From the NCBI GenBank assembly GCA_012295275.1, contig CM022670.1, positions 10,540,001 through 10,604,000 of the forward strand: a stretch of DNA of 64,000 nt, given 5' to 3'. Below are positions 11,838-46,418 of the stretch, piece by piece. The notes under the pieces are model-generated. The model made no database searches and had not been told where the DNA came from. It worked only from the letters and a program-made list of their open reading frames with translations. The position numbers were made by a program, and so were the translations under genes. The first letter of the stretch is position 1; every line of letters starts with the position of its first letter. The stretch is from Chrysomallon squamiferum (Eukaryota; Animalia; Mollusca).

Positions 11838-13788
11838 GTTTTGTTTTGTTTTGTTTTGTTTTGTTTTGTTTTGTTTTATTTTATTTTATTTTTTTTTTTT
11901 TTTTTTTTTTTGCTGAATATTTTGATATAAATAAAATAGTTCTGAAGTTAACCATTATTCAAGCTTTATGTGAATACCTGGCCAACTAGATGCATCAAAT
12001 GTCAGGGTACACACCAAACAGCGACAACCAGGAGCCATTAAAGATTTTATCAGTTCAGAATACCTGTGACAAGTGATAATACATTAATTGTGTATATTCA
12101 TAATAAGACATACAAGTACATACTAGCATAACAGGACATTCTATGTCACAAATAAAGCTGATGTAGCATTAATGCTTTTTATAAAATATTTCAATAGTTC
12201 TGATTAAACAATAAGAAGATGTGGCTAAATAATTTCTTTCTGTGAAAAGTTATCATACATCAGTTCATGTCAGGATTTACCTGTCGTTAATAAAGGTAAG
12301 ATAACAATGAGAATTTCTGTTTAATGACATGTTTTACATTAAAGATTTCAGCTGTAACAATAACATATCAATATCCTTGAGTCAAAACAGATATTTTCCC
12401 AACATCTTCTCAATCAGATTAAGTCAAATAAATGGAGTCCATGGTCATTTCTACAGTTTGCAAAATTATTTATAAGCAAACTCAAAATCTTTCACAACAG
12501 ACATGAATATTCTAGAGATATCTGTTGGGGGAAAATTTTATAAATTACAATTATAAAAAAAATCATCAAACTAAAAACACTGAAACATGTTGAATTCATT
12601 GGTTTTTGGAAACTTTAGTTAGTCTAGTAATTAAACATGGATACTCATCAAATAAATTCAGAATGGTATATTTGTGTTTTAATTAAGTGTGTTTACAAAC
12701 CGTGGTCTGTCATGTACATTTATAGCAACCAAAGATCCTCGATCCCAAATAGCATCAAACTGCCCTGCAACATCTCTGTAACAGATACAAAAATTGCCAC
12801 TAAAATATGTAGATATATATTTACTTTAGTAAATAAAACTTTTGAAATCAGCATTAAAAAGTTTCAAAATTAATATTCATTTTGTTTTTATTATTATGAT
12901 TAGCCTTAATACTGAGGTTTAATTCTGTTCAAAATATGGATACAGCAATTAAGTGATTGGTTTGTAAAAGTGTGTAGTGATCACTGAAGTTCACACTGTA
13001 AATCACAATTTGAAAATGAACAAATACTTGATGATTATTATTACAAAGCAATATTTATTAACAATATATAATAAGTCTGCCGTTTTCATTATAAAAACAG
13101 AAAACAATGAAAATGAAGCAGATTAAATATTAGATAACTTACTTGTTAAACAGAAAGAAATCACATTCAAATATCTGAATCCTGTTATCAGCACTCTATA
13201 AAATAAAATAACAAAAATAAATTTATAAGATGGACACAAAACTTTACATTAAACTGTATTGCAAATATTATAAATTTATGGCCATCTTTATATTTTCATT
13301 TTTGTACATATTTAAAATGATTATTTCAAGTGAACTTGGTAACATCAGAAATCTATTACAGATATAGAATTATAATAGTGGCAGTCTAGACTTCATAAAT
13401 GGGTTTAAATTAGATGCTTCCTGTGTCAAGACTAATTTCAATAAAATAGTTATAATGTGACAGGCAGCAAATACTGTTATAAGAAATCTGTAAAAATTAT
13501 TATTGTTACATACTTCATGAAATAATTATTTCAGTTACCCATAAATTCTTTAAAATAAATATATAAAACTGTGAAAAATACTGAGTCTCAAAAATATTAT
13601 TTTAATAAGAAATATTTCAAAATCGTCAACAAGAAATAATTATTTAAAAATATTTTATCAGAACATTTAATGAATGCAAAAAAAATAAATTGTTACCACA
13701 TACCCTGAAACATACTATTAACAAAATTTATTCATTATAAAATATTTTGTATTAAAATAAAATAATAATAATGCCTGCTTCAAAACAC

Positions 13789-13820
<32 letters not shown>

Positions 13821-15357
13821 TAATAATAATAATAATAATAATAACAATAATAAAAATTATTATTATTATTATTATTATTTAAACGCTAAAGCAACAGAAA
13901 ACACAAGATACCTTGTAATGTTTCCCATTAATGGACTCCATTGGTTCCACTGTATATTCCAAATTACTTTCCTCAAAAAATTCTTTAACTGCTTTTTCAC
14001 TTGTCTCTACACCAACCACATGATGACCCTGATCATAAATCCTGTTAAATAAACATACAAGAATTCTTAAAATTATTATTATATAGTTTTTTTTTCACTG
14101 AAGTATAATTAGCCTGGAAAGTTTTTATTTCTTTATATTCAAAATGATGTTTTGTATTATTATCTGGTTTTTGTATTATTATCATAATTTATAACAAGCA
14201 AAGGCTACTCACAATAAAATAGAAAAAAATAAAATAAAATAAAATAAAATAAAAATTTACAAAATGTATTGAGGTTTTGTTTGGGGTTTTTTGGTATAAT
14301 TATTCAACAAAAGGTATGTTTTTACTGTATAACTGACCATTTCATGTCCAGTGCTTTGCCACAAAGAGGAAACAAAATCTTTACATGTTCTCTTCCTGCC
14401 AACAAGTGGTCCTTGTATTTTACCAGCAGTCTGAAATAATTCAATCAGTATTTGTTCAAGCATATTCAAATTATCTTATGAAAATAAAGCATTAGTCAAA
14501 CACATAAGAAATATATAGACATCAACACCACAGTATTTTTTGTTGTGGTGGGTTTCTTGAGGGGGGGCAATTTCTCTTTGTTTAGGGGGGTAGGAGTTGG
14601 TTAGTTGATTTTGAGGATGGTGATGAGTTGGGTTGATGTTTTTTTTAAGGAGGTGTCATTTGGAATTTTTAAAAAAAAATTCTCATTGTTTGTTTTGTTT
14701 GTTGTTTTTTTAAAATCTGCTATTGTTTCAAAATATTAGGTTTCATATGTTTACTTTTTCATTATTTATAATGAGTTTCATTTTCTGTAACAAAAATACA
14801 ATCAAAAGAAAGAGAATTCCATTAAACATGGTTGTATTTTTTTTTTTTTTCTTTTTGTTTCCCTTAATGAATGGTTATCAATCATTCCATAAATAAAACA
14901 ATATGTTTTAGTGAATTACCATCCAGTTCCCATTGTTGAAATGTTTAAAAGTAATTATCAACAAAGAATATAATTATGAAATTATTGTTAGTTGCTTTCT
15001 GTGGGGTGGGAGGTTTTTTTGGGGGGGAGTAGTTTTAGTTGCTGTTGTTTTGTTTGGTTAGGTTTTGGGGGTTCGTTGTTGCTGTTTCTTTTTGCACCTT
15101 AAAAATAAAAAAATTAAATTAACATTAATAATAAAAATTATATTGAAAAAAACACACAAAAAATCATGCATTAACATGTCTTCATGTTCTCTACTTATTA
15201 TATTTTATAAAAAAATGACATACTCATGAACAGATGTTTTATGAAATCCTATTTTGCCTACTTCCCAGCTCACTTTCCAATCATCAACAGTCAGGACTGC
15301 ATCTTTAACAGTTGACTTTTTGTCAGTAGTATCTTCAATATTAGAATCCGACTCCAT
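10805..15357 (-). CDS. TPMT: Thiopurine S-methyltransferase (~248 aa). Coding exons 15357-15224, 14430-14338, 14041-13912, 13195-13143, 12775-12701, 12063-11978, 11562-11518, 10935-10805
   Basis: The spliced ORF (747 nt) contains the TPMT hallmarks LTVDDWKVSWEVGKIGFHK, ILFPLCGKALDMKW, GHHVVGVE, FDAIWDRGSLVAIN, GPPHIVP and DSFEERHRAWG. All introns are GT-AG. Exon sizes 93/53/75/86/45 match the vertebrate gene as I recall it. Confidence 0.95.
11690..11912. repeat. Compound pentanucleotide microsatellite (TTTAA)n-(TTTTA)n-(TTTTG)n-polyT in a TPMT intron
   Basis: Seen directly. Confidence 0.95.
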
Positions 15358-16309: not shown

Positions 16310-16735
16310 GCAGTACGCCAGTAGGGAATTACAAAATTCCTATTTGTCCTATGTCATCTGATCATGCTGACGTAAGGGTTTTCTAGTAACAGTACTACGT
16401 ACCTACGTGACTAAAAGTAATTAAGTAGTAGCAAAAATCATACCTTGGTCAAGTTAAAGCCCCCTGTACGAGAAAAGCAATAAACATGCAATGCGCATAA
16501 CTGGGTTGTCCAAAAATATTTTTTGGGTTTCGTATTAAACAGCTTTGGCGCGTAACGAATGATCCTGAAAAAAGGTTTAATCATGAGTCTTAAGTTCACC
16601 AATGATAATCATAATCCACGTGCGTTTCGTATTATTTGTACACAAAGTACAAATCGTACTTCCGTAGTTATTCCGCCTGAATGTAGCCCATAAACGAACC
16701 AGGATTAGTAATGTTACACATAATTTACAGGTAGA
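16310..16735. promoter_or_regulatory. Bidirectional promoter shared by TPMT (-) and POP1 (+)
   Basis: Local CpG enrichment between CpG-depleted gene bodies; NRF1-like TGCGCAT (~16492), E2F-type TTTGGCGC (16544-16551), CACGTG (16617-16622), ETS ACTTCCG (16658-16664); divergent donors at 16443 (-) and 16731 (+). Confidence 0.7.
16444..16463 (-). other. TPMT: Putative non-coding 5' exon of TPMT
   Basis: Minus strand reads ttttctcgtacag|GGGGCTTTAACTTGACCAAG|gtatga. The ATG exon begins directly at an AG acceptor (15359-15358), so an upstream non-coding exon is expected. Confidence 0.55.
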
Positions 16736-17926
16736 GATTTATTTATACTTCATTGGAAATGTTAAATATCATGTATATTTATATTTATTGTAATTAGCTT
16801 GTGAAAAATAAATTACAATTTGTTTAGGAATAAAAACAATTATTTCAGTAGATTATTTAGTTTTAGAGAATGTGTAAGGTCATTTAAAATGTATTACTTG
16901 TGTAGACTAGAGAGACCCTGAATTAGGCGTGTTGTGAGACATTCTATGATTCTGATTTACCGACTGATTAGATATGTAATTGAAATTATTTATATTTGTA
17001 TTTAACGACATAGTGTATGATTAGAACATTCGTTTGTTTAGCGCATGTTACAATTTTAACACACTTCTAGGTTAAGTGTTTGCCATGCGGTATAAATTAG
17101 AGGGTCTCAAATCACATTTATAAAATTAAAAATTAAAACTATGGCAATTTTGTCGAATAAAATTAGAAATAGAATCAGAAAATTTATGAATAATAATCAG
17201 TTATTTGTTATTACAGGAAAAATAATGAAAATAATAATGCATGAAAAGAAGTAAATTTCGAATTCTTGAAATATATTCACTCAGGTCAGGAGTTTCATTA
17301 AATATTACAAATTTAAATTTAACTTTTACTTTACAATTATAAATGTGAATTATAAAAAATGTTTATCTTTTCGTCTACCCCTTGTCAGCAATGCTTTTAG
17401 CACTTCTTTACAGTATTTTATTCTACAGCTACTGAGCTAGTGCACATAAAACAGTGCCATAAAACTGTATAAACCCCCTTTACACATGTCAAATCAACAA
17501 TTATTTCCCAGTGTTAATACAACATTGATATTGTGATAATTGGTGTACATGTAAAAAAATTCATTGAAAATAAAACAAGTCTTGTGAATGGCATCAATCT
17601 GTTTTTGAGAACTGCTGAGTGAGTGAAACTTCTGCTAAAAAAAAGGGGTAGATAACCTCCATTTCACTAACTTTACAAGTTAATATATTCTGCATTTGCA
17701 CATAGTTTATTACTTGATATTTAGAACATAAGATAGTTCCAGTTCTAAAAAAAAACAATGCCTGAACAATATCATGCTGGTTTTTTATGCAGATTTTGGA
17801 CTTTTTTGGTTGGTTCATTAAGATAATCCTGTTGTGTGACAAGGAACTTCATATTTATCTTGATAAATGTTTTTTTTTTTTTTTTTTTTTAAAGATATTT
17901 TGTGATGAAATATTCACTTTAGAAGA

Positions 17927-19317
17927 ATGAAAAGATCACTTGATAAAGAAAATGGTGAATCTTCATCAGCATCTCAAGCAAAAAGAAAATTTATCCATGA
18001 AAAGCCAGATATTAAACTTAAGAATCCTGGAGGTGGGTACTATGAATCCTTTCAGAACTTTTTGGTTGTTTGTTTTTCAGCAGCATTTAAATTTATATTC
18101 AGCTGACTAGATTTCATAATAATTATTATTACACTAAAATTTTATTTATAAGTTTAATTCTTTTTTTAGTTTTATTTATTTTTTAACAGAACTGTTAAAT
18201 TAATTAATTAAATAAATAAAATCTTCAAAGAAGTAATTTAAACTGAAGTTATTATTTTTTTTCTGACTTCATATCAAACGTCCCAAATAATATAGTAATG
18301 CAAATATGTAACTATCATATGTCTATTCCATATTTCTTTTCCCCAGATATTATTTAATATATGGAAATGTAATCAAATCAAGATATTTAGACTATTTGCA
18401 GCACTAATTGATTATACATTTTGACTGATATTAATATTTAAAAATACAGAAATCAGGATAGTAGACTTTGCCGAATGTCGTGCTTTAGAAGTGGAAGCTC
18501 TGTCCAGAGCTGTCTCTAAAATGCACAGTTCTAAAACCATTTGTCAGCGATTGCCAAGACATATGCGACGTCGCGCCATGGCACATGATGTCAAGAGGTT
18601 GCCAAGACGATTGCGTGAAATTGCACTGAGCAAGGTACATTGTGTATTTCTGATTATTTGTTGACCAAATTACTTTTTATTTGATTTTTGAAATATGCAA
18701 GATAAACAGTTATAAATAATGTATTATAATAACCTTATATTTGCATGATATTAAAATTTCCTATTGTATTCCAGTCATTTTTTGTTTTTATCCATTTTCT
18801 AAAACATACATGAACTCTTTTTGTGTTTAAATTTTGGTCACTGATCTTTTATTATAAGAATAATTTGTCTAATGTTTGTCAAGACTTGTGGCATGTATAG
18901 TAATTAAATGGGGTGTTCAAATTGAATTTTTAAATTTGAAAATGTTGCTGAAATATTTTAAATTCTGTTGGCAAAAACATGTATGAATTCAAACCCTAGA
19001 TAATAATCTCTTTTTATTGTTAACCCTTCAGATGATAAAAAGTACAAAAACCAATCCAAACAAAAGACCGAGTCGAAAATTCAGGCGTCGACCAAAAAAT
19101 CTTCTTGAAGATTACAATCGACGTCAGAAGAGATGCTGTTGGTTGGAAACTCACATCTGGCATGCCAAGCGGTTTCACATGACAGAGAAATGGGGTTACA
19201 AACTGGCACTGAGCCCTTGTGACAAAAGTGCACGTGCATGTTACCGGGCTGCATCCAATCACTGTCTGCTTCAGGTAAGTGATTTTACAAAATGTAAAAG
19301 TGAAAACTCCAGATAAT

Positions 19318-19369
<52 letters not shown>

Positions 19370-22300
19370 CATTAGTATGAAAATTTTAAGGAGATGTGTA
19401 TTGTATTAATCACTTTAATCTGTTGTTTGGTCACAAAAATAGTTTTTGATTACATTATGTGATAAAGGTATGAATGATTGTACAGGTCTAAATAAAATGT
19501 AGCTATTCAATCTTTTTCTTCTTGTTTTTTTTTTCAGGATATATCTTATGTGTGCTGTTTAGAAATTCAGGGACCAGAAAATAAAATCATTGAATCTCTT
19601 CAGCATCTGACTAGACCTGAAATGGGTTTGTATAAAATATAGCAATTCCTACACTCACAGAAGAGCAAGTACCAGTGTAACTTTTATTACACACACATAC
19701 ACAGCTATTTTGAAAATATTTGAAAACATTTACATTCATGTGTTAAATTGTTGTAATTGTTAACTAATGTTTAAAAAATATATGTTGTTTCTATATAATT
19801 ATAGGACCAACTATTGCAGCAAAAGCCTATCTTGATGGCAGAAGATGTGGCAAGACCATTTTCTTTTCATATAACAAGAACTCAAACAAACCAGTTGCTC
19901 AGATTTCTTTTATGTGGAGGCCCCATGCTTCCAGCAGCAACTCAGTGCAAGGGAGACAACTTTGGATATGGTGTCATCCGTCTTGTTTTGAAGGAGTTCT
20001 ACATGAAGTGCAAAAATGTATAAAGGAAAGGCATGCAACATCTTTATCTGTTGAAAAGAAACAAGAGAGCAAAGTGCTTATTAAGAAAAATGAAATAGAG
20101 AATTCTGAAAACAAGACAACAGCTGAAGACAGAGCTATGACTATAGAAGGAGATAGCTCAAAAGAAATGATCATAAACATTGAATGTTCTGATCAGTTTG
20201 ACAAAAATTCCAACTTTACAACATTCTCTCAGACAACTGGAGATGTAACTGTTAGATCCTTGAAGGATAAACTGGTAAGATTTACACTGACAGGACCCCT
20301 TTCTCAAAAGATTCTGAATGAAACTCTTCAGCCATCTAAAATTGATACTGCTGAAACCAGTATGTCTGGTGATTCAGATAATCATTCTTTGTGGTGGGAA
20401 AAATATTTCTCAGATGACAACATGAAAACAAAATTTGAGGAACAGAAGTCTGTTTGGACCCAGCTAGCTGCCTGTCAGTCACCTGCTGAAGCCCCTCCCA
20501 ATATTGTACTTGGATTGACAGTCAGAGATCCCAGAGTTCTTCTTCCTCAGAAAAGGTATTCCATGAAAGAAAGTAAACCAGGTAATTACTTCTTGATCAT
20601 TATTTTAAATGTAAAGAGAGAAGTTTAATAATTTAAGTTGTTTATTTTTATTTATGTTTTTATTTCTGGGAGGTAACTTTTATTATTAATAATATTAGAT
20701 TGTGTCTATATGTATTGTAAGCTTAGTTTTAACAAAGAAAAAAAATGCATACATCATATGGTATCATCATGGTGTTAGTGTTGTAGTGTGCCAATATTGT
20801 AAGATAAGTAATAAAAAATATCTTTAAAAGACATGGAGAGAACTTTCCAACTGGGTAGCTCAAAGGCAGAGTGCTGGTAATTGTTGCCAGAGATACAGGT
20901 TCAAATCCTGTCCCAGTTTAATCAGTTGTTCTCTGCCATGCTGTAATTTTACTTATTGATTTAAATATCTGTCAGCTATTGGATAATGAGAGGAAAATGT
21001 AGAAAAGTGTATTTAACTTTTTACTTATTAATACAATCGTTTTTGTGTTCATATTTTAAAACAACATTTAACAGTTTTTATTCCTTAAAAAAAGTTGAAA
21101 GTCATTTGATGTTAATATGATTCAAACATGATCAGTCTAATCTGTTAAAACTGAAACTACATAAAGTTAACAAAGTTTTTGTAATTTTAATGTTTTTATT
21201 TTTTAGACATAAATTATCTGCATGTAAGTACTACATATATGATACAAATATGCAACATAAAATTCTATGATCAAGCTTTAATTCCAAAAAACAAATATTT
21301 GTCAAATAATAATTATAAACGAAAACTATGGTTACTGAAAATGCACTATATTTTCACAGAAACAAATGTTGCATCAGTGCCAAGTTTAAGTGAACCACCA
21401 TTACCCCATTTGTGTGATTCTCCACTCTGGGATGAAGCAGTGAGACTGAACACAAAGGAAAACAAAATGCCAGAGTCTGAACTTAACAAACTTCGTTCTA
21501 AACACCTTGTGCCAGGTAAGATGTATAAAACAGAACAAAACATCAAAATGAAAACTTTGATAAACTTACTGTTATATTATCAACAGTAATAAAACAAAAA
21601 TAATTTGTATGTCTTTTTAATTCCAGTAAAGTATTATATAAAATTTATTATTAAAAAACAATTTCAACAGTGAGGACATTCTGTTAAATAATACAAATTT
21701 GTATTAATGATAAAAGTATATATATAATTTATATTAATAATACTATATGGTAAATCTTAAACTGTTATTCAGCAAGATTTAAATATGCACTAACTGAATT
21801 GTTTTACCAATATTGAACAATTTATTTTCTGTCTGCCAGCCAACCTACCAAGATCACATCTTTTTGTCCATTTCATAATTAACATATATCTTTTCTTTCC
21901 CTCATAGATCAGAACTTGTTTTTTGGTCTGTCTTGCAATACCTTGTAAACTCAGTGTTTTTAAATTTATTTTTATTTATTTAAGGTACAGCAATAGATCT
22001 TGGAAGAAGAGAATCACGTATTCCCATTGTGCTGGTCCAGCGACCAGGTTTTCGACCGCCTGTGCTGTCAAGAAATATGAAGCAGTATAAAGCTGGTTAT
22101 GGTAGTGGATGGGATCTGATAGCCCCTGCAGGATTTGGCATGGCCTTCCACCTTGCGATGGTGTACCGTGGGGCTCGTGTGGGAGGTCTGAGAGAAGCAC
22201 GATGCATAGCTGCAGAAAGTGAAGAGCTGATTTTTCCTGATGATTTTCCTGATACACCAGCAGGTGCTGCAGAACATAAAAGCCAGTATGAAGAACTGAA

Positions 22301-23099
22301 GAAGAAATATGAAAGACGTCCACCTGCCAAGAAACCAAACTATACTAAACTTGGAATTTCTTCTCCATTTTGTTGTCCTTGGCAACAGTTAGTTTATTGG
22401 TGGGCTTCAAAAACTACTGATAGTAAAGGCATGCAAGATCAGAAAGCTGAAGATGAAACATCTTTTTATGTCATGAGGAGTAAGAAGGGACTTAAATTGT
22501 TGAATTCTCTTGTATTAGAACAAAAACCACAAAAATCATCAAATTTCAACAAAACCAGCAACCTGATCAGTGATTTTCATAAGATGATAAATGAAAATAA
22601 GCATGCTTTAGTTCCAGTGACAGTCACTATGCTAGGTCGAGGGGTTCCTCAGAAGTTTGCTCACATCTGTATTCCATCACAAGAAGATCTAAAGAATCTG
22701 CAGCAAGATAAAACCTTTGCTGGTCCAAAGGAAAGTCTGCAACCAGATCCTGCTCTGGCAGCAAAGAAAAAAGAAAAGGCTTTGAAAAAGAAAACTAAAT
22801 CTGTTGTTAGCACACCATCTCTTTCTAAAGCATCAGATGATGACAGTGATGATGATACTTCAGAAAGCAGTCAGGATCAGTTACCTTCACAGACATGTCA
22901 TAGGCCAGTTATTGGGTATATTTCTTATGGTGACTTTGCATTAGGACAAGGTCAAGGTGCTGGCAAAGGATTTTGTTCTGTGGTAGGAGTTCACCAGCTT
23001 AGATCTGCTACACTGGATAACAAACACTGTGTGGTGCTTGTTCGAAACACAACTTCTCTGCAGTACCGTTTTGCTTACTTATCTTTGATAACTTCTTAA
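17927..23099 (+). CDS. POP1: Ribonucleases P/MRP protein subunit POP1 (~889 aa). Coding exons 17927-18032, 18450-18634, 19032-19274, 19538-19625, 19805-20581, 21360-21515, 21985-23099
   Basis: The spliced ORF (2670 nt) has the POP1 R-box [23 protein letters not shown], the W-box [29 protein letters not shown], the POPLD region [47 protein letters not shown] and the C-terminal G-box [24 protein letters not shown]. Confidence 0.96.
20849..20919 (+). ncRNA. tRNA-like cloverleaf (non-decoding tRNA mimic, or pseudo-tRNA/repeat-derived) inside POP1 intron 20582-21359
   Basis: Acceptor AACTGGG/CCCAGTT; TA; D-arm GCTC-AAAGGCA-GAGT; G; anticodon arm CTGGT-AATTGTT-GCCAG; variable AGAT; T-arm ACAGG-TTCAAAT-CCTGT; discriminator T. 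A box TAGCTCAAAGG and B box GGTTCAAATCC are present. The anticodon loop lacks U33 and purine 37. Confidence 0.75.
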
Positions 23100-24854
23100 T
23101 AGCAATAGTCTGATCACCAATTATTATCATAATAAACATTTATATTTAGACCATTTTAAGAAATACCCAAAAGGTTATCAGGAAATTAGCATCATAATAC
23201 TGTGAAGTTCTTGAAGATTAAATCATAATATATGTATATATATACATATTATTATGTCACATTCAAACAAATAAAAAAAATGAATGCACCACATTTAATT
23301 TTCATTTGTATTAATTGTAATTTTAAATGAGATATGTATTTAGTGCTTTGAGTAAAGATTGCTGTTCTTTACTTTAAGGGGAGTTTGGGAGGGTGTTTTA
23401 TTATTATTATTATTAACAAAACAAACAAACAAAAAATGTGGGGGAAAAATACTTACTTCCAAATTATTCTTTCAGTCTGAAAGGGATGTGTCCTGACCTG
23501 GAATTTGAGCTCACTATTTTTCAAGTTTGACCTACTGACCTATTATTGCATCAGCTGTTACGTATTTTACAATAATAATTTAAACAAACAAACATATTTT
23601 TTTTCGAAAAGGGCTAGGCCGTAATTATTTATTTCAGCCTGTGTGAATAATTTTATTTACCTTTTAATTGTTAATCGGTTCAAATTCATGTTTATGTTTT
23701 ATTTCATTCATAAAATATAAAATAGACAAAATTTAATAATTAAATTATAATATAAACTGTAATAACATAAACTGCTAAAAACAGAAATAATCGATCTGAA
23801 ACGTATGTGCAAAAAAATATTCTGAAACAGGATGACGCCATTATCATTGGGAACGCCTCCTCTAAACGGTGGTAATTATGTAAAGAGTATACAATGGGCA
23901 GTAATCCAAACAAAATAATAATCATTAAAGAAATGTCTTAGTTGTTTTCTTTCCTTTCTTTTTTTTCTCCACAAATTAACATATTTAATGGAAACTCGAA
24001 CTAACAGATACATTGATGTCACTGAGATACAACTGTTAAAAAATTACGCTTATTATTATCTGTTAAATGTTAATTAAAACACGGAAAACGACTTTAATTT
24101 ATACGGATTTCATATGTGGTTCAATGCGCTAAAATCGTTATGTTAAAACACACACACACACAGAACAGTGAATTATGTATAGGCATGTCTTCTACATGAG
24201 TCGGTGTGATTATGAAAAACAACAATGATTATTAATTAATCTAAGTATCTAGAATCCAGGGCATTTGAATTAATCAGGTCAGAAGCTTATAAATAAATAA
24301 ATAAATAAATAAATAATAGTAATAATATGATTTTAACATCATGGAATTCGTCGAGGTTTGGTTAAAAAACTGCTCGTTATATACAAAAATACACATCTTT
24401 CATTTAAAGAAGAAAAAACAAATCTCACGAGGCTGTGTATTCGATTAATTCTAGCAACAATTTTTCTCCTCGATTCTAAAAATAAACAGTTAATTAATTT
24501 GAAAATAAATAAATAAATACAAATATATGTTTTCTCGGATTTGCACTTTAACAAGACCAGATTCCAGCTGTCGTCTTATTGGCGATATTATATAAACATC
24601 AGTATCGATCCACTTTTTCAGACCACGTACTGAATAAGAAAACTCATGTGGTTAAAAATGAAGATTATCGTCAATATGTTCTCAAAGATCGATCACCAGT
24701 CTGGTAAATTACCGCAGACCAAATCAGTGTACGTTCTTGTCACAAATGTGGCAAATCTGTAAATGTTTAAAAGTGAATTAATGTTGCAATCACAGACAAC
24801 ATCTATTACGTATATTATGCTGTTAGATCATGCAAAAATTATTCAGTTATCGTT

Positions 24855-26510: not shown

Positions 26511-28711
26511 GTCATTTCCTAGCTAATTATTAAATCAGTTCAGATGTAATGCAAATTTTAGTTATTTATTATCCCAGCTAAAATGTTAAAGTTAGATATC
26601 TGTATATTTTATATATGTATTTCCAAGAATATGGTGCATGCATATAGGATGAAGACCAATCATTATTATTTTATTTATTTTTTGTTTATTATTTGTTTTT
26701 TGATTATAATTATATTAATCTTTTTCTCTTTTTTTTTAATTTTTTTTTTTTTACACATATGGTTAATCTTATAAAATAGTTTCTTCTGTTATATGTTAAA
26801 TATAAGTAATAGACATTTTGTTTATGTGGACTTGTTCCATTACAAAGATTTCATCATGTTTTGTCATAGCAACTTTTTAAATGTACATATGGTATTGTTA
26901 CAACTGCTTGTGTAACACACTAAATAAAGGAGACAGTTCCTAAAGCATCAGTAAAACCATATATATGTAGTCTTTTTATTTAGTTGGTTAAATTTCTTAA
27001 ATAAATAAAAATAAATTTAGATACATCATAACTTTAAAAATCTCACTGAGAGAGCATATGCTAGAAGGGAAATTATTTCTTTGGTAGCAACTTAGACTCC
27101 ATTATAAATCAGTTCTAGTGTTAATGTATCAAAAATTAATTTAAGTACTCGCCTAGGGTTCCAAATGCTCTTGTATGAATCTAATGCCCATTTCATCTTT
27201 TAACTTTATTACAATCCTCAAACAGTTTCATTGATTCAGTTGGTATTGATAACTATAACTGTTAAGATGCAGAGTTCAAATACAATAATTTAAAATAAAA
27301 TAAAAGGATCTTAAATATTTAAATATTTGCACTGCATATAAGTAATTTTCTTTTTCTTTTGTTTTTTAAAAGAAAAATGAATAATTTGCAAAACATATTC
27401 ACTGATAGCTTTTCTTACCAAACATAGTGTAATAAGATAGAAATTATAATTACGCATCCAAATACAGATTTATTCAGTTATTTTCACTTTATCTGAACAC
27501 ATCACACTGAACCTTCATGTCTGGCATATTAAAAATAAAAGCTATTCTCTTGATAAACTGTGTGTTAAATTCTCACCTATGCTTCGCTTTCATTTATTTC
27601 AGAGTAAATATATTGCAGAATGTATAGACGAAATCAAGCAGGAATTGAAACAAGAAAATTTGGCAGTGAAAGCCAATGCAGTAAACAAACTAACATATGT
27701 AAATATATTTCTTTCATGTTTTGTCTGTGGTTTGAATTATTGTAATTTTGTTGTTAGAAAAACAGATGTTAATAAAATTGTTCCTTTCTAAACACATATT
27801 GTTAATAACTGACAGAAAATTTTGGCCATTTTAATAACAGTTATTTGTAAAATAGAAGATCATAAATTGTGTGAGAGAGAGGTATTAATGTTATAGATGT
27901 TTGTCACATAAATAACACAATGCTATTCCTTTCTTCAGCTACAAATGCTTGGATATGACATCAGCTGGGCAGCCTTCAATATTATTGAAGTTATGAGCTC
28001 CACAAAATTCACTTTCAAGGTCTGTAAAACAAATGCCGTAAACAAAACTGGTTAAAAGCAAAGAAAATTCTTTAATTGCCTAACATTTTGTTAATTTTTA
28101 TAAACTTTATTCATTGAATTTGTCACTTGGTAGATATTTCATTAAGTTTTTGATTACTGAAATACTTAGGCATTTTTCATATTTAAAAAGAAATACCTAA
28201 CAAGAAGTATATCAGCTAGTAAACTAACATTTTATCAAAATAAAAATGTTGGGGAAAAAAAAAAAAATTAATTCCTCCAGATGAAAGACATTTTGATAGT
28301 TTTAGTTATTAAGTTTGTAAACATCAGTTTAAAAATCTATGTTAACACTTTTTATTTATTACTTGTCTACAGAGAATTGGTTACCTGGCTGCATCCCAGT
28401 GTTTCTATGAAGGCACTGATGTGCTCATGTTGACAACAAACATGATCAGAAAGGTATTAAACAATAAATATATAAATAAACGAAATATGTCTTTACAACC
28501 CTTTATATTTGTTAGATCAGTAATAAGATATGTACTCAATTTTCTGTGCTTAAGTTCAATTTTATCAATCTCATGGTATTTTCTTGTTTAATATGCTATT
28601 TTAAAACGTCTTATATAGTAGGGGAAATTCTGTTACACGGTCCAATTTTTTAATTTATTTTTTATTTTTTATTACTGCTATTATTTTATTTTCATTTATT
28701 TTATTTGTATT

Positions 28712-28755
<44 letters not shown>

Positions 28756-31700
28756 TTTAATGAAATATATTATTTAACAAAAAAAAACATCATCAAATTA
28801 GTAATAGTAATTATTATTTAAATTTTGAATTCTGTACGAGTATGATACATAATTCACTTTATTAGTAATTTAAAACAGACTTAATATGTTATTTTAGAAA
28901 CAAATATGTAGATACTTAGCTGTAATACTTTATTTTCCAGGATCTCAGCAGTCAGCAGATGTATGATGCAGGTGTAGCTTTGAATGGTCTTTCATGTTTC
29001 ATTACCAGTGATCTGGCTCGCGATTTGGCTAATGATATAATGACTTTGGTAAGGCAGCATTGTCACAGAACGTTAGATATTTACTATGCCATTTAAAACA
29101 ATTTGAAAATCAGTGAAATCTCTGGTTTTTTTGTTTTTTTTAATTAGCACAGATGATTGTCACATTTTAAACTTATTAAATAATAAAACAAATTTAATCT
29201 TGAAACTATTTCAATGTTTATTACATCCAGAGATTATTGAACAATGATAAGGGTAAACACTTCAGTGATGTATTGCTTTTGAAAAACTGTTGGACTTAAT
29301 ATATTTTAATTATTCAGATTTGTTTATTTTACATTTTGTTATTATTATTAATATTATTATTATTATTATTATCTAGATGGCATCATCTCGGCCACATCTG
29401 AGGAAAAAAGCTGTACTGATCATGTACAAAGTGTTTCTTCAGTTTCCTGAAGCACTTAGACCAGCTTTTCATAGGCTCAAAGAAAAACTTGAAGATCCTG
29501 ACCCAGGTTTGTTTTGTCACTCCATTTCCATCTAGAGCTGTTTCAATGACTAAGTCGGGTTAATTGTTGCCTGACAGAGTTATTGCCCTTTTCATATTCC
29601 TTTGATCTCTAGTTAACGTTTTCTTCTTGCATTGATTTTATAGATTTGGGCTTTTCATTATTTTAATGCAGCTGATTAAATGATTTTTTTATATATATAT
29701 ATATTATTTATTGCCAGTGTAATGTTATCCTCATATTATGTAGTCATAATAAAACAGAAACATCAGTGCATGAGTTTGTCATGTGTAAGTAAGAAAAACT
29801 TTGATTTGTATAGAATTACTATAATGTTCTTTTAAGGATATTTTCAAGCTTTGAAAAAAACTAAATTAATGTAATAAATATGTATATTTATATCTCAAAC
29901 AGTTGAACCATTATGATATGATAACGGTAATGATTAATATAATTAAATATATTGTGTATACTTTGTCTGTTGCAGATTGTATTCTTGTATTTATAGAATA
30001 GTAATAATAATAATAATAATGACAATAATAATAATAATAATAATAATAATAGTAATAGTAATACTAATAGTAGAACTAATAATGTTACAGGTGTGCAGTC
30101 AGCTGCTGTGAATGTGATATGTGAACTGGCTAGGAAAAATCCCAAGAATTACCTGTCTCTTGCTCCTCTCTTCTTTAAACTGATGACCAGCTCTACCAAT
30201 AACTGGGTTCTCATCAAGATCATTAAACTGGTATGATTTAAATACATTGGTTTTTTTTCTATACCTTTATGTACCTATGTCAGTCTGTGTGTGTGTGTGT
30301 GTGTGCATGCATGTGTGTTTAATTTTTAGCCTGAAGCACAAATATATGTAGCACTGTATTTATAAGATACCATTTATTATTAATTTTCTTGTGTTATTAT
30401 ATGGTTATTTGCCATAATTATTTGTGAAAAGAAAATTTAGAATCACACTGAAAACATTTTCTTGGTGAGTTTTGCTTTTTGTCCTGCACAATTTTTTATT
30501 TTTTTTTATTGTATCCATCATTATTTAAAAGGAAATTAGATAATAAACGTAATTAATTATTATAATAACTTTGTGTCATTTCTATCAATTAAGATTTATT
30601 TCTGTTTCAGTTTGGTGCTCTCACGCCTCTTGAACCACGTTTAGGCAAGAAGCTCATCGAACCTCTTACTAACCTTATCCATAGGTGAATATTTCATACA
30701 GACAGGGAGAGGCTTTAAACTTTGTAGATACTCTTTCAGTAAACAGATAGATAATCTTTACAGTTCTAGGACATTTCATAAAAGCTGAGTAAGGAATGAA
30801 CTGATGGTTGGGTAGAACATAAGTGTAAAGCAGGCATCAGCAAACTTTTTAAATCTTCAAGTACTCAAACTATATCATAATCAACCAGATTTATTGATTC
30901 CCTTTTGACTTCTAGACATTTATAAACTCTTTGGATAGCAACATCATCCCTGAGGGATTGCCAACAATGATGTTGCTTATCTCTGAGCTAAACTGTCATT
31001 ATAGCATTAATTCTTTTCTGTCTAAACCGTTTCATTAATTTTTTAAAGGCAGTGTATTACTGCTCAAAAGGAAAATGTATGTAAAATATTCATTGCTGCC
31101 AGATTACAAGAGCACAGTATTGGAAATGGAATTTGTCTGTTGTATCATCATTAAACAAAAAAAATATATCTAGTAATATTTTGTTCATAGACTGTGACTA
31201 GCTGTTTCATATTTTTTAAACCAAAATTTTCTCATTATTTAGTAGGCAATTTGTGGCATTACTCATTAATGAGGAGTTCAAATCGTATTCAGCAGTTATC
31301 TTAAATGTTTATAATTACAGTTAATAGAACTCAGCTTAATGAATTATAAATGTTAATAGGTATACCATCGTAATACCAGCTGTTGGTTTCTGAATAAAAT
31401 TAAGCTGTTATCGATCCACTGCATAGACAAACATTATGCAAGAGTAAATGGAGAAATGTATTTAGGTGTCCTATTTATTAAAAATAAACTTTCATAGATG
31501 ACAATGCAGTTTAAATCCACAGACAAAAATCCATATAAAATAAATAAATAAACTTTCAGAAATCAATTTTGGAACAAAACAGCTGCCATAAATACATTTG
31601 TATCACATCCTTCTCAAATAAATGAAAGCAAGAACTGGACTAAATAATTTGTTTTTGTTATCATGTTATCATGTGAAAATTAAAAGTGCCCAATGGTTTA

Positions 31701-33381
31701 GCTAAAAATATATTTTGCATTTCAGCACTTCAGCCATGTCTTTGCTTTATGAATGCATTAATACTGTGATAGCAGGTAAGTAATTTTTGTTGTTGTTGTA
31801 AATTGAAGTTATCCAAGCAATTTGTTTTACAGCACTGTGACAAATTTTGAATTGATATAGTCACTGCAAAATTAATTTTTATAAATAATGTTAGCATAAA
31901 AGTTGTTTAATTTTCTTATTGAAAACCAAACAAAAATTAGTTTTGTTTGTTTATAAGTATTATATATTCACTTCTATGATTTTTATAATTTTAAACTTCA
32001 CTGTCATTTTATTTGATGAGCATTAAAGTCAAATTGCTCAAGCTGGTTTATTAATACTTTTATTTTTGAATGTTTCTTTAGTTTGTTTTATCAAGTAGAG
32101 TTTTGTTATTTTTGTGTCTGCAGTGAAATCATTTTGTTTCAATCAAGTGAAAAATAAATGTTGCACTTTTTTCTAAGGTTTGTGGTATACATTTTTTTTT
32201 TTTTTTTTATTTTTTTTTTTTTTTTATTATTATTATTATTACTTCTTTGTCATTGCTGCACAAACACATTTTTGATTATTAAAATGAAGAAAGCCCCTAA
32301 AAAAAATCACCAGTTTCATTTCTGTTGCAATATTATGTTTATTATTTTTCTAAGTTAATTTATTTTAATTTAAATTTTTCTTTTTATAAAAAGACTATAT
32401 TTTTATCACATTTTATCTGCATTCATTTTAATATTTTAATATTTCAGTCACAGATAATGTGCATTTTCAGTCATATAAAAAATGTTTATTGTAATTTTTT
32501 ACATTGTTCGTTTAGTGTGTTTAAAACTTTAATAAATAATCTTTTCTAATATTTGTTTTGATATATTAGAATATTTCTGTTAAATGTAGTAATGAAATGT
32601 ATAAATTTGAATATTCTCAAATATTTATTACTTTCATAATAAATATTAACAGGTATATCTAAATTAACAAATGCAAAAGAAATCTAGTTTAAAATTAATT
32701 GAAATAAATCTTTAGAATTATTTTTAATTATATATGTGATAGTTTTTGTTCAAAATTAAAATATGTTTAAGCCATCAAATAGATCATAGAATAATTTTTA
32801 CCTTTCACTGATAACAAATAAAGCCAGTTACAATTAATAATGTTAACTAAATATATTCATAATAACAGTAATTAAATTAACTTAAATTACCACAAACCTC
32901 AGGTACACTGTGTAGCATATGTTATTTTATTTATTTATTGTTTTAAAATTCTACTTATTTATTTATATCTTTTTTAATTTTTGCATTTGAAATAGAAAAT
33001 AAAATGACTTATGTGTGACCATGCAAAACAGGAACTTAAAAGATTTCTTTACAATAGTCATTAAGAATTTACTGCATAATGAGTGCAAAAAGAACTAATA
33101 TCATTAAAGATGTTAAAAGTTTATATCATAAAAACAAAAGTTGAAACTATAATAAAAACTTTTTTTTACATTTTTATTTTGTTTTGTTTTTGTTTATTTT
33201 ATTTCTTCTTATTTTTCCACATTTTTGTAATGAATATCAACATGTGTGTTTTTCTGTGCATGGTTAAACATTTGACTGCGTTTCGACTGCTGTAATTAAA
33301 TTTTTACAATTACAAACTGAAATTTATGACTTTTTACAAAATTTATTCATTACATTTTTATTAAAATTATTTAATGCATTC

Positions 33382-33412
<31 letters not shown>

Positions 33413-34637
33413 TTTTTTGCAAAGATAAAAAAAAAAAACAATGACTCACTGCTGACACATAATAATTTCTCTCCTCTTACTTACAGTACTCATTTCTATA
33501 TCTTCAGGCATTCCAAACCACACTGCCTCCATCCAGGTACTTGACTTTCTTTGTTTTGTTTCAGATGAGTCAGAATTTCAGATACATGTAGTAACTTTTT
33601 ATGTATGAAATAACAGAGCTGACAAGCACTGACTATTCATGTGATATGCATACATGAGAATGAGTGTTTTGTTCATTACACATGGAATACGATTTTGCTA
33701 TTTCATGGTAACGTAAGTAAAGATCTAGCATCGCTATGCCATGGTGTAATTAAAAATTTTAACTGTCATTTTTGTTATAACAAACATGCATACTGTGTAA
33801 ATAACCCAGGCCAATGATAACCCAATTCTTTTGCAGACCAAAATAATGATCTCATTTTGATATGTTATATGAAGTAAATACATTATTTGTTCAAAATTAA
33901 ATGCATCTAAGTTCATAAACAGTATATCATTTTTAAAATTATAAGACCAGTAAAAAGTATATATATATTATCTTGCATGTAACTGAAATTCTGAATTTAT
34001 CTGTGGTTTATGGTTGTTAATTTGACTTTTGAAGGTGTTTTTGTAATTATTTACATGTACATGACTATTATAGTATTAATTTTTACATAGACATTAAAAA
34101 GGTGATGGATTTAAATGTTGGTAGTGGTGTTGAAAATAGTCACTATTTTTGTAACAAGTGTTGTTATGATTATGTGTTTACAGTAGCAATGGCTACAATA
34201 TTACTAATCTAAATTATATTTTAACTCATACAAATAATGTTTTGTTTTCTTACAAATATCAACATTTTATTGTGATAAGAAAATATTTCATTGTCAGTGA
34301 CATATGGTATGCATGATTATATCATTTACAGCTGAAATATTAACATCAATAATTAAAGCATACTGTTTTTAAAACATTTGGTGCTATTTGACAGTTGATT
34401 TTTAATTTGGCTCAGCTACCCTTATTGAAAGATTATATAATATAGATCTGTCTGATGTTTATTAAATGTGTAATTTTTTGGGGGAAATGTTATATCATTA
34501 GTTTTTGTGTGATGCTTATTGTTCATTGGTAAATGGCAAATTGTCTAAGCTTTTACCTTTCCATATGTATTCCTATACATTCCCTGTTAATGCAATAATA
34601 CCAGTATGCACATTGACATGCACATGCATGCACATAG

Positions 34638-34704
<67 letters not shown>

Positions 34705-35313
34705 CACATACATATATACATATATACATACACATACATATATACATATATACATATATACATACACATACATATATATACATACACATACATATATACA
34801 TACATAACATTAACTTGATTAAGATAATAAACCTGTCAATAAAATGTTTATTTACTATCATAGTTTCAATTTTAATTAATTTTCAGGCAATATAGGCCTG
34901 AGTTTTATTGTTAAATTGGTTGAATTATTTGTACATGTTTATAAATATTGATTCTCCAGAATTTTAAATAGTTTTTCTGTTGTTGTTTTTTTTTTGGATT
35001 TTTTAAATAAAATTTTAAAATTCTTTTTTTTATTGATTTCCATTTTTATTTAATTAAACAATATGATAATGTGTTTGAGGTGTTTCGGTGTATATATATA
35101 ACATGTTTACACAGTTGGCCATTCAGTGCAGTTGACTTTTTTGCTTTTGTTAAATTTATTAACAATGTTGTATAAATATTGTGAAAAATATCAGAACTCA
35201 AAAACAGAACATTTTAAATTTTGTGTTTATTGTTATTATTAAGCACACAAATGCACATGCATACACAGCATCTAAGAACGTTAATGTGTTTTAATTTAAT
35301 TTTTTCTCCATGG

Positions 35314-35344
<31 letters not shown>

Positions 35345-38036
35345 TGTATTTTTATTTTTAGATGTTGTGCTGGCTTTTAATGTGCTCTGATATTTTTAAA
35401 TTCAAATCAATTTAAATTATTTTTAATTCAGTTATGTGTTCAGAAGCTGAGGATACTTATTGAAGATTCAGATCAAAACTGTGAGTACCTCGTCAGCTAC
35501 CTTTCAGGTTTAGATGAAACATATGTACATATAGAATTGTTTCTGTGTGTTACGGGATATCGATTCTTCTGGGAGAATCTTTTCATCTATTGCAGCCACT
35601 GCTCTGTTGTATGAAATAAACTAAAACAAAAGTGGGACAGTCATGACCTGGGAGATAATTTGTAACAGGATAAATCCTGTCTTGCTTCTTTTTCCCATTC
35701 TACTGACCTATTACTGGTTTATCAAAGGCATTGGTATGTGCCCTCCTGATTTTGATAATATGTACATATATAAAAGATCCCATGTTTATAATAGGGGGGA
35801 AAAATGTGTCCTCTCTCATTAACTGTTTGAGCCTCAAGCAAATATATTTTTTGCAATAGATCAGTTGAGTTTTACAAAAATGTGTGATTACCCAAAAAGT
35901 TTAGTCGGTGTAAACTATACCATTTCAATTTCATAAATATTAAAAATGTTACTACTCTTTGATTATATGCAGTTTTTAACTTTTATTTTTTTAAATTTTA
36001 ATTTTTGTATTAATTTAATTTTTTTAATTTCTTTAATTTATATGTTAACACAATAAACTTTGTCCTGATAGCTGAACTGTTTTCATTTCAGTAAAGTATT
36101 TAGGGCTACTGGCAATGTCAAAGATTTTGGCCACGCATCCAAAGAGCGTTCAAGCACACAAAGACCTGGTCATGCAGTGTCTAGATGACAAGGATGAATC
36201 CATCAGATTGAGAGCTCTAGACCTTCTGTATGGAATGGTAAGATAATGTTTTAGAGAACATGTACAGCTGATGATCTTTCTTTTGTAGTAAAATATTACA
36301 AAAAATGTCCTATTATTAAGAAATATAATCATTTAATCTGTAGTACATGGAAGGGGAAAGACATTTTCAATCAGAATCATTTTTTTATATTCATAGGCAA
36401 GAAACAGAACATTAACAAGCAGATAAAATAATTAAACAGTTGTTCTTTTTTAAAGAATCTATGATACATTTAAAATCATACACATATATCAGTAAAGAGG
36501 ATAAATAAATATTTTTAGTGAATCAGTAACATATTTTAAATCAATACCAAAGGTATGAGGATAAAATATTTTTTAATTGCATCATATATTACTTAATCAC
36601 TGTTTTGATGTGTAAACTGATGAACAAATTTCCTTTGTATTAAGGTGTCGAAGAAGAACCTGATGGAGATTGTGAAGAAGCTCATGGTACACATGGACAA
36701 GGCTGAAGGGTCTCACTACAGAGATGAACTTCTAGCTAAAATAGTTCTCATCTGTAGTCAGTCCAACTACCAGTATGTGACCAACTTCGAATGGTAAGTC
36801 AGTTTTTATATCTTCTGGATGATTGTATTCTTACTGTACACATTCGGTTGTAGAAAAAAAAAATTAATATACATTATAATTTATTATTTTTTATTTGACA
36901 AAATGAAATAATGAAAAAACAATCCTTGTATTCAATGTATATGTTGTAGATAATATCACCAAAAATTTCATTAAATTTAAAATAATTGCTAAAGGCTTCT
37001 TTATGGTTTTTAAATTTTTATTTGACAAAATGAAATAATTTAAAAAAAATTCCTTTTACTTGGCAGTGTATTTTTACGAAAAATACTTAGTATTAAATAC
37101 TCACTAAATACTAATGATATTTTGTTGTTTTTTTGTTTAAATTTTATATTTTTTTAAATGAAATAAATAAAAGTAAGCATTTTCTGTAACAGTGTAGTTC
37201 ATAGATAAATAGGTTATAAAAGCTTAAAATTCATGCTCAACTATATGACTATTTCAGGTACGTAAGCATCCTAGTAGAGTTAACAAGAATGGAAGGTACG
37301 AGACATGGAAAAATGATTGCATCTCAGATGTTAGATGTAGCAATAAGGGTGCAAGCAATAAGACACTTTGCTGTGTCACAAATGGTAATAATATTTATAC
37401 ATTTTCCTCTTTTCTTTATTTTTATTTTATTTATTTTTTTAGGATAACAAATTCATAAATCCTGTTTGACAAAATTATTAATATCTGTAAGACGAAATGT
37501 TAGTATTTGTTACAGCAAATTAATATTAATTAATACAGTTAATTTGATGAACAACTGCAGTATAAATATCTACATCAGAAATAGGATTTCTTTATTGAGT
37601 TTATTGTAAAGCATTCGAAGTTATATCAATACAAATGTCTGAATTTAGAATGTTTCTTTAACATCAGATACATTTCCCTATATTGATATGCATATTGTAT
37701 CCTATTTTCTTTTGTAAACAGATAAATATTAAATATAATGTTATAATATAACATTATATAGTTACATACAAATTTTAGTAGTAATTTTATTTTATTTATT
37801 ATTATTATTATTTGTTTAAAATTATTTTGGGGTTTGTTTCATGCTCAGGCTATTCTTCTGGAGAACAGCCATGCTTTAGCTAACAACTCACAAAGGAATG
37901 GAATCTGTGAGGTGTTGTATGCTGCTGCCTGGATATGTGGAGAGTTTTCTGAGTGAGTACAATATTTGTTTATCCTGCTTTTTCTATTCCTTATTACTTT
38001 TTTTTTTTTTTTGATACATACACATGTGTGCACACG

Positions 38037-38086
<50 letters not shown>

Positions 38087-44000: not shown

Positions 44001-46387
44001 AAAAGATAAAAAGATAAAGAAAGAGAAGAAGAAGAGAGAGAAGGAGAAAAGAAACGAGTATGAAGAGCCAGAAGGAATAACCACTCCATCAAAAGAGAAT
44101 ATTTCTGTGTCTCAGATGGGCACCCCCATGGAAACAAAACTACCTGTTAGTTGCTGTTATTTTATTTTTATTATTATTAAAACTACTAACATTCGTTGCA
44201 GTAGCAGCATTACTTTTGTTGTAATAATAATCATAATAATTCTCATTTTATTTTATTTTTTATTATTATTATTATTTATTTTATTTTTTATTTTTTATTT
44301 TTTTTATCTTTTTAAAGTGGAAAGTTAATTTTGTTTTTTCTGAATGATGTGTGTAATTGACTGAACATAGACATGCCTACATAAAGTAATTTTTGATATA
44401 CGTATTGTTTTCCCTTTCTTTAAGAAGGTAAAAAAAAAAAAATAGATACTGAGCTTATTGAAAATAAAATCCTATTAACACGACACTTTATAACTTTCTT
44501 CCAGCCCATGTCAAGTTACAAACTGTTGGCAGAAAATTCATCAATAAAAATGGTAAATTGTATTTTATTTGACACTTAGAAATTTTAAATAGTGCAGTTC
44601 ATTTTATCAAATATTGTGAATTCAGGATAAAAATATACTTAACATTTCTGGATTTAATGTTTTATATATATATAAAGAATAATATGAAAAAATATTTTAA
44701 AAACTGTTTCTAAGTGTTAACCATATGTTATTAATATAAAGCATCTAAATAATATTTCCTACATGTGGCTCTAAAGTTTTCTTTCCTTTATTGTTTTTGT
44801 ATATTTTTACAAATATGATTTTTTAGACGTATGAGACTCGAGTGACACACCAAAGAAGTGACCAGATAATCGTGTCAATCATTTTCAACAATCTTACTGC
44901 AAATCACGTGAAAGAGATGGAGTTCAATGTGTTGGACACATTGAATACAAAACTTATTAGAGGGGTATGTGTTATTTTGTTCTTTTATTCTGTCGAAACT
45001 AAAACATAATGTAATTTTTGATTAAATGATCATTAATTTAAGAAAAAACAAATAATAATATTTTAAATATAGTTTTTATTTCCATGTCTAAAATTAATGT
45101 TCAGATATGTGTTTTTATTTTTAATACAATATGTAATGAAGAGTGCTGATTAGGTAAACATTAAATTAAATTATAAGATTACTTTTTGGGGTGAAGGGCT
45201 TTTCATAAAATAAGTAACAAAAAATTTCCCTTTTGTAATGCACACCTATTTCATCTTTGTTTGGTTTTTTTCTTTAAAATCTTTATTCATATTAGATATT
45301 TCATCTGCCCAAATTGCTTCTTCTTCTTTTTTTTTTCTTTAAAAAAAAAAAAAAAAAAAAAAAAATGACATAAGATTATATTTTATTTCTTATTTAACCC
45401 AGATGGGACAGAGTCATCACGATGCTGTCAAAGTTCCTTTTACTCTGCTTCCTGGCTCTCAAAACGAGGGACAGTTTGCGTTTTCTGTAGACAGCATCAC
45501 CATGCCTCAGAAGATGCGTGGCACACTGACATACATTGTGAAGGTATTTGTTGCTGCATTCACTTCATTAATACAATTATTATTATTACTACTGTTATTA
45601 CTACTAATGCTACTATTCTTATATTTTACATATACCTAATCATTACATTTTCTCATAATTTTAAGCACTGATGTATGATTTACATTGTAAAGATTCAGTT
45701 CTTCCATGTTTTTCACTGCTGATTTATTAATTTGTGGTGTAGTGTCATTAAATAACAGTTAATTAATTCGTTCATTTATTAAATATTTTTTATTATTGTT
45801 ACGCTTAACGGTCTTTATTATTAATAATGCTTATTGAAGCTAAACAGTTATTCAAATTATTTTTTTATAGTCTGAAGACGGTTCTACGCATGACAAACTG
45901 GATTTTAAAATTCACTTACCTTGCAGCTGTTATCTTATTACAACACCGTGCAAGAGGTTTGTTCAGTTTAATATTTCTTTATAATGCATACATATTCGTT
46001 TTTTCTCTTCTCCAGATAATAATTCTTAACATTTGTTTAATTAATCAGCCATTTGAGATATGCTCATATCGACTGATAGAAAATAAATGAGAAAAAAAAA
46101 GACATTCAGAAAATTAAGTTTGCAGAAAAGTACCTTTAAATCTGAGTAATTAGCTTAGCATAAAGGTATGTCTGACCATTTCAAGATGGTGTAGCCTATG
46201 CAAATTTGTTCATAAATGTAAATTTTAATTAAAACAAATGTTTGTGTTTTAGAACAGAATTTCATTAATAATATTTTTATAATAAATGTTTTTCATTTCT
46301 GTTATGACTTTTATTATTATTAATTTTGTTTTTATTAGTATTTTTATTTTTTTATTTTTTTTTTATTGAATATTTATAATTTATTTA

Positions 46388-46418
<31 letters not shown>

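Follow-up and report, generated by a model that had tools for sequence, protein, structure and literature searches.

Why should the gene for POP1, the scaffold protein of the tRNA-processing enzyme RNase P, carry what looks like a complete tRNA inside one of its introns? The question is raised by a stretch of 64,000 nucleotides of the mollusc Chrysomallon squamiferum (GCA_012295275.1, contig CM022670.1, positions 10,540,001 to 10,604,000 of the forward strand), referred to here as the window and numbered from its first letter, in which a sequence-only reading had described a 71-nt cloverleaf at 20849-20919 and had proposed it as a cleavage element through which RNase P would regulate its own scaffold. 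The answer reached here is that this is a selected element, most likely (with a probability of roughly 0.55) a pre-tRNA decoy for RNase P feedback on POP1, as suggested by the sequences compared, the predicted folds and the analogy with known substrates.

A tRNA-like cloverleaf in a POP1 intron

The element lies on the sense strand of POP1, 267 nt past the donor of the intron at 20582-21359. ARAGORN makes one tRNA-like call in the 64 kb, Gln-TTG at 20849-20919 (+); the Rfam tRNA family (RF00005) scores the same interval at 53.2 bits (gathering threshold 29; E 1.2e-9), which is the only gathering-level Rfam match across the whole window; and when the 72-mer is folded, its structure of lowest energy is the cloverleaf (z -2.75; 3 of 200 shuffles equally good), with U as the discriminator. 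The cloverleaf that had been claimed on the sense strand is thus found by each of the three approaches. Its four stems are complete, also as described beforehand, with 21 of 21 positions paired (acceptor 7, D 4, anticodon 5, T 5), two of the pairs being G-U and none mismatched, and these pairs keep probabilities of 0.66-1.0 with the whole 778-nt intron folded. The D loop is AAAGGCA, the variable loop AGAT (4 nt), the T loop TTCAAAT and the anticodon loop AATTGTT, and the element has the conserved elbow bases of a cytosolic-type tRNA cloverleaf.

The anticodon loop had been singled out as abnormal and able to zip up, and on both counts the description holds: AATTGTT lacks U33 as well as purine 37, and the stem is predicted to be extendable to 7 bp, the two added pairs having probabilities of 0.95 and 0.55. 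As a control, 52 distinct tRNA-like sequences from phages that share the T-arm motif were considered; 9 whose anticodon was called as 2 or 4 nt were dropped, and of the remaining 43, all with a 3-nt anticodon, 38 have U33, 41 have purine 37 and only 2 have neither. Because a loop without U33 and without purine 37 is so rare in this set (2/43), the element would be tRNA-shaped and unlikely to decode.

The host intron also contains three donor-like sites, one at 20877-20882, in the 5′ strand of the anticodon stem, whose six intronic letters are those of the true donor, and others at 20673 and 21224; splicing at 20673 would introduce a stop near 20626. An AATAAA at 20810 was set aside, since the motif occurs 164 times on the + strand of the window.

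Copy number and conservation in a second species

Copy number was judged by the depth of assembled contigs from whole DNA runs of the same species, at 80% or 85% likeness; records matching human DNA were excluded from these counts, which may hide ordinary tRNA genes. At 80% likeness the depth over the element is that of a single genomic contig (75.7 in run X1, 7.7 in run X3), and the AT-rich stretches of the host intron attract extra contigs whereas the element does not. The window may itself derive from X1, which has no bearing on a count of copies. At 85% likeness the 234-nt bin that holds the element stands at 60.7 against 56.7 in run X5 and at 137.7 against 106 in run X4, while a true repeat at 18138-18371 reaches 505 (X5) and 2547 (X4). 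No second copy of at least 80% likeness was found in X1 and X3, and at 80% these two runs give no repeat depth over the flanks, with no body or tail of a short interspersed nuclear element (SINE) beyond the cloverleaf. The depth in X1 and X3 therefore indicates a single copy and not the hundreds of intact copies that the sequence-only reading had kept in view, and membership of a repeat family is unlikely. Among the within-species differences listed, none falls in 20829-20942.

The second species (organism B, runs X10 and X11 of one sample) has almost no words in common with the window. One of its contigs aligns, in the same orientation, with 20455-20559, part of the POP1 exon that precedes the host intron (17 differences in 105 letters), and with exactly 20849-20919 (5 in 71), the alignment stopping precisely at both ends of the cloverleaf. 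Between the exon piece and the element there are 434 letters in the second species as against 289 in the window, and these are unalignable at 80%. Ten of the exon differences are listed, 8 of them at third codon positions, that is, at 8 of the 14 third positions in 20490-20529, and the element differs significantly less than those third positions (5/71 against 8/14, Fisher p 5.6e-5). By this comparison the cloverleaf is under purifying selection. Of the five differences within the element one is listed, at 20880 in the anticodon loop. A 24-nt match of the second species to 20674-20697 was treated as chance, because it sits on another contig.

A predicted stalk around the cloverleaf

The cloverleaf appears to be bracketed by a further helix, absent from the sequence-only reading. 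Its predicted 14 pairs join a 5′ strand at 20829-20843 (+; pair probabilities of 0.76-1.0 in the fold of the whole intron) to a 3′ strand at 20928-20942 (+), which contains a pyrimidine-rich core motif, and would leave unpaired, at the foot of the acceptor stem, five leader bases (20844-20848, +, single-stranded in the folds) and nine trailer bases with the discriminator counted. According to the rule that RNase P follows, the cut would fall at the end of this free leader, at 20848/20849 (PMC8509007; this and the other papers cited by their PMC numbers are drawn upon through parts of their text).

The duplex of the stalk is worth -18.7 kcal/mol. By energy 11 of 5000 shuffles are equally good, but by pair count 34 of 300 are, which is not significant, and for this reason the support that the window alone gives to the predicted stalk is moderate. 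The core motif of the 3′ strand is unique on the + strand of the 64 kb and recurs in the contig of the second species 12 nt behind the cloverleaf, in an unaligned loose end; the sequence of the 5′ partner lies outside the alignment listed for that species. The stalk, too, is probably under purifying selection.

The same intron in a vertebrate and in other animals

Relatives of POP1 were sought in metagenome contigs and the best 80 of 212 were examined (528 kb), all 80 by ARAGORN and a covariance-model search at default settings, 29 by Rfam E-value scans and 17 by a model search with the filter off. Our own covariance model was built from two sequences and has the D and anticodon arms of the vertebrate one misaligned, on account of which it was used as a second search only; with relaxed thresholds ARAGORN returned noise for the most part, and these results were excluded from the counts.

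The only default ARAGORN match in these best 80 loci is L063:6003-6076 (+), called without a definite anticodon, and the locus is a vertebrate POP1 gene, its best exon being 81% identical to amphibian POP1. The element scores 41.4 bits with the Rfam tRNA family, is in the sense orientation, and in this one vertebrate locus lies 246 nt past the donor (267 in the window) of a phase-1 intron that follows the same exon with the DPR motif. When the 21 pairs of the window are compared with those of L063, 8 are identical, 9 have changed on both sides and are still paired, 3 have changed on one side and 1 no longer pairs. Here too the anticodon loop is abnormal, with 8 nt; the A-box region is short by one base, the acceptor, anticodon and T stems being fully paired; and the fold taken by itself is weaker (z -1.05). 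The identity of 35/71 between the two elements is within the span of 29-47 found among unrelated phage tRNAs that share the T-arm motif, a motif common to the window and L063 and present in about 790 viral stretches, and the sequences cannot prove the common descent of the two. The chance of finding a sense match in the first 500 nt of that very intron is about 1%, a rough figure obtained from one match in 528 kb and 24 loci touching the intron.

The intron is old, coral-like and insect-like loci having it at that position and in that phase. A sense cloverleaf is nevertheless found in none of the 16 other loci that span it completely (L002, L011, L016-L019, L027, L033, L035, L036, L046, L054, L058, L059, L064 and L069, several of them near-duplicates, and among them coral-like, insect-like and two lophotrochozoan-like ones), for which reason this is not a general animal mechanism at that intron. 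Of the outcomes that the sequence-only reading had named as refuting it, neither the many copies nor the absence from orthologous introns is what is seen, the element being single-copy in the DNA runs of its own species and kept in that intron of the second species and of the vertebrate. The distribution of the conserved element is patchy.

Eight loci cover the intron in part, L063 being positive and L042 weak. The latter has, about 150 nt into the same POP1 intron, a sense tRNA-like head (L042:1676-1748) with broken stems, a tail and 19 bits, which we take to be a probable SINE. SINE-like, tRNA-derived heads are also present in antisense, in the same intron of insect-like loci (L033:4354-4437, also L035 and L036) and in another POP1 intron of a coral-like one (L064:1474-1547). 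From these heads it follows that tRNA-derived sequence reaches POP1 introns by chance too. POP1 scans of the genome-contig and viral-contig collections gave no match, and blastn of the 71-mer against phages gave weak tRNA matches only, none of them covering 80%, with no sign of a phage donor.

A probable RNase P feedback on the POP1 pre-mRNA

RNase P gauges the elbow formed by the D and T loops together with the acceptor stem, and it is POP1 itself that anchors the acceptor stem (PMC8509007). From MALAT1, a transcript of RNA polymerase II (Pol II), the enzyme cuts out the tRNA-like mascRNA, whose processing is promoted by an extended leader/trailer helix with an unpaired cut site and hindered by a continuous helix (PMC8457004). 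The parts kept in the element are those that RNase P reads, which we count in favor of feedback; and it is because the element seems to have a build of the mascRNA type, inside the pre-mRNA of the enzyme's own scaffold, that feedback by RNase P is the explanation we favor. If so, RNase P would cut the POP1 pre-mRNA at 20848/20849 in competition with the splicing of the 778-nt intron, after which the upstream piece, with no poly(A) and an open 3′ end, and the downstream piece, with its 5′ phosphate, would both be degraded. In other words, plentiful enzyme would mean more cutting and less POP1 mRNA, and the level of RNase P/MRP would be buffered.

Several observations speak against this. A contig from an RNA library (X6) crosses the element unbroken, from 20702 to 21266, which may reflect DNA or uncut pre-mRNA and, since contigs do not display RNA ends, tells neither for nor against cleavage; the element in the window has intact A and B boxes; and the nimtRNAs, which are also intronic cloverleafs, are not processed as tRNAs (PMC7722341). 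Measured against the whole exon piece, and not against third positions, the conservation of the element in the second species is not significant (Fisher p 0.10), and the anticodon arm, ignored by RNase P, is there as well kept as the rest, something that feedback leaves unexplained. To these must be added the 16 loci with no sense cloverleaf, and the vertebrate element itself, which has no significant stalk in L063 (365 of 2000 shuffles equally good).

More tentatively, and on somewhat less than even odds, the elements could belong to a POP1-intron decoy that has been in animals for more than 0.5 billion years, either inherited from the last common ancestor of molluscs and vertebrates or re-invented at this same intron, with loss or relocation in other lineages, and serving a feedback in which the holoenzyme does the cutting; the gastropod stalk may then decide whether the transcript is killed or the decoy released.

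Alternative explanations

The element could also act in cis without being cut, if POP1, RNase P or some other reader of tRNA shapes bound to it and altered the efficiency of splicing or the choice of site, which is unlikely, albeit the least unlikely of the alternatives. The tRNA-like fold of GUT15 does inhibit the splicing of its own intron (PMC6152437), and nimtRNAs enhance splicing in a way that requires the cloverleaf (PMC7722341). Conservation of the whole fold, including the anticodon arm, fits binding without a cut, and the presence of three donor-like sites, one of them in the anticodon stem at 20877, fits an effect on splicing; in the second species, however, a consensus base of the stem site is gone (20880), and that site has no counterpart in L063, no alternative junction is seen in the thin RNA cover, and the elbow, the length of the acceptor and the free leader all suit a substrate of RNase P. 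A somewhat smaller probability attaches to an independent unit of RNA polymerase III (Pol III), be it an unusual tRNA gene or a site for TFIIIC, that would affect POP1 through its own transcript or at the level of DNA. An A-box-like sequence within the D arm (20856-20866, +) and a B-box-like one within the T arm (20898-20908, +) match the consensus, neither having been mentioned in the sequence-only reading, and the first T4 run past the element, a possible Pol III terminator, is at 20947-20950 (+), 28 nt downstream of the cloverleaf, one of five T4-T5 runs in 20920-21100, such runs being common in the AT-rich host intron. Genes for tRNAs are conserved with sharp edges, like those of the second-species alignment, and a Pol III-occupied element, the intronic MIR, regulates the gene of the Pol III subunit Polr3e (PMC5358760). 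That MIR lowered the expression of a reporter only in antisense (PMC5358760), whereas the copies in the window, the second species and L063 are all three in sense; moreover, L063 has lost one base from its A-box region with its acceptor, anticodon and T stems fully paired, and the anticodon loop of the window is, by the control counts, unfit for decoding.

Slightly more doubtful again is the possibility that POP1 is simply the host gene of a stable tRNA-like RNA, released by RNase P and RNase Z from an intron whose two halves the stalk would keep joined, so that splicing could go on and POP1 output would not change. In its favor, the stalk would tie what precedes the 5′ cut to what follows the 3′ cut, the motif of its 3′ strand is present again in the second species, and stable tRNA-like RNAs are released from the Pol II transcripts GUT15 and MALAT1 in the accounts cited above; but the vertebrate locus has no significant stalk, an RNA acting in trans need not remain within POP1, and the anticodon loops of the window and L063 have nothing in common, so that a shared role in trans is not evident. 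There is finally the neutral explanation, a tRNA pseudogene or SINE head whose presence in the intron is accidental, which the sequence-only reading had regarded as a real alternative and which now seems very improbable. POP1 introns do contain such heads (L033/L035/L036, L064, L042), and the identity between the window and L063 is no higher than the range for unrelated phage tRNAs; against this, two whole DNA runs show no other copy at 80%, the 21 pairs all form and no SINE tail follows, and the element is 93% identical in a second species whose intron is otherwise unalignable and in which more than half of the third codon positions have changed. That it is single-copy, and kept in the orthologous intron of the second species (5/71) and of the vertebrate, largely excludes a neutral repeat.

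Relation to known systems

A tRNA-like structure in a vertebrate POP1 intron was reportedly described in the EvoFam work of Parker et al. in 2011, and is said to have been proposed there as autoregulatory. Going by that proposal, the idea of autoregulation is probably not new, and the element of the window would be a new, invertebrate member of a predicted class that has apparently never been put to experiment. The resemblance to the vertebrate element as reported extends to the host gene, the intronic tRNA-like fold and the proposed autoregulation, and we infer that L063 carries that same element. L063 and the window agree in position and phase, and differ in that the D arm of the window is more canonical and is accompanied by the predicted 14-bp stalk, which L063 does not have. 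Neither of the two matches an Rfam family of POP1 intronic elements.

The mascRNA and menRNA of MALAT1 and NEAT1 also have a tRNA-like fold in a Pol II transcript, with leader/trailer pairing and an unpaired cut site, both predicted in the window, but they are found at the 3′ end of a long noncoding RNA (lncRNA), behind a triple helix, and their cut matures the RNA (PMC8457004), while the element in question sits in an intron of an mRNA gene, possesses complete D and anticodon arms, and would have a 5-by-9 internal loop in place of a one-base bulge. In 18000-24000 there is no match to the mascRNA/menRNA Rfam family, the list at E up to 1 consisting of tRNA and a chance mir-297, nor any Rfam match to an ENE/A-rich triple helix, the host being the intron of a coding gene. 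GUT15 of Arabidopsis is likewise intronic, sense and tRNA-like, and affects its host intron, but the host is a plant lncRNA and not the gene of a tRNA-processing enzyme, and no feedback loop is described in the parts of that paper drawn upon (PMC6152437). The MIR of Polr3e is conserved and intronic, has A and B boxes and tunes its host, a gene of the machinery that makes tRNA; it is, however, antisense and works through Pol III transcriptional interference, whereas the POP1 elements are sense and keep their RNA stems (PMC5358760). The nimtRNAs are likewise cloverleafs within introns, and their structure is important to the host pre-mRNA; they differ in being mitochondrial in origin and splicing enhancers (PMC7722341), the element of the window having the D-loop GG and the T-loop consensus of the cytosolic type.

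In the literature searched, which leaves most subscription journals outside, no experimental test or description of the POP1 intronic element was found; the parts consulted of PMC9945436, PMC12016569, PMC5538553, PMC3783177, PMC4269304 and PMC12406990 make no mention of it, nor was a description found, in the portions available of the reviews consulted on RNase P, of how the level of RNase P/MRP is set. If true, the feedback would be a direct one, with a ribozyme cleaving the message that encodes its own scaffold protein. A mollusc counterpart in the same intron, under purifying selection, raises the odds of function, and provides a near-canonical and easily mutated substrate with which cleavage could be tested. 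As mutations of POP1 cause anauxetic dysplasia (PMC12406990), an element that set the dosage of POP1 in cis could matter in people too.

The POP1 gene and its surroundings

The coding span of POP1 is 17927-23099 (+), delimited by Pfam matches and an open frame of 889 aa, and its seven exons, at 17927-18032, 18450-18634, 19032-19274, 19538-19625, 19805-20581, 21360-21515 and 21985-23099 (+), are separated by GT-AG introns and join into 889 codons with no stop. The flanking frames contain POP1_N, POPLD and POP1_C (PF06978, PF08170, PF22770), and abalone POP1 proteins come closest, at 40-43% over the last exon, which makes the gene gastropod-like. The host intron (20582-21359, +; phase 1, 778 nt), between the exons at 19805-20581 and 21360-21515, is defined by GT-AG, frame continuity and homology, its boundaries being deduced in this way and not from a spliced read; one POP1 junction, 18634/19032, is seen spliced in an RNA contig. 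That the element is in an intron of POP1 and in sense, as had been said from the letters alone, is confirmed by the Pfam domains and the 889-codon frame. The RNA contigs are thin, with a depth of 0-8 in most bins and introns covered as well as exons, and in 16500-23500 the two RNA libraries give many intronic contigs and one spliced joint, which means that introns are retained or that DNA is present. The repeat at 18138-18371, in a POP1 intron, is short and of high copy number (depth 505-2547, against 57-105 for single-copy sequence).

Head to head with POP1, on the minus strand, 12682-15357 holds exons resembling thiopurine S-methyltransferase (Pfam TPMT). On the plus strand there is a multi-exon adaptin gene at about 27900-47000, with Adaptin_N at 27912-28052, 29377-29532 and 36076-36243, which we take to be AP-3 delta. 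Further on, also on the plus strand, a frame of 252 codons at 60475-61230 abounds in Ser, Gly and Pro, contains short internal repeats and has no Pfam match, and the opposite strand is likewise open over 60474-61211.

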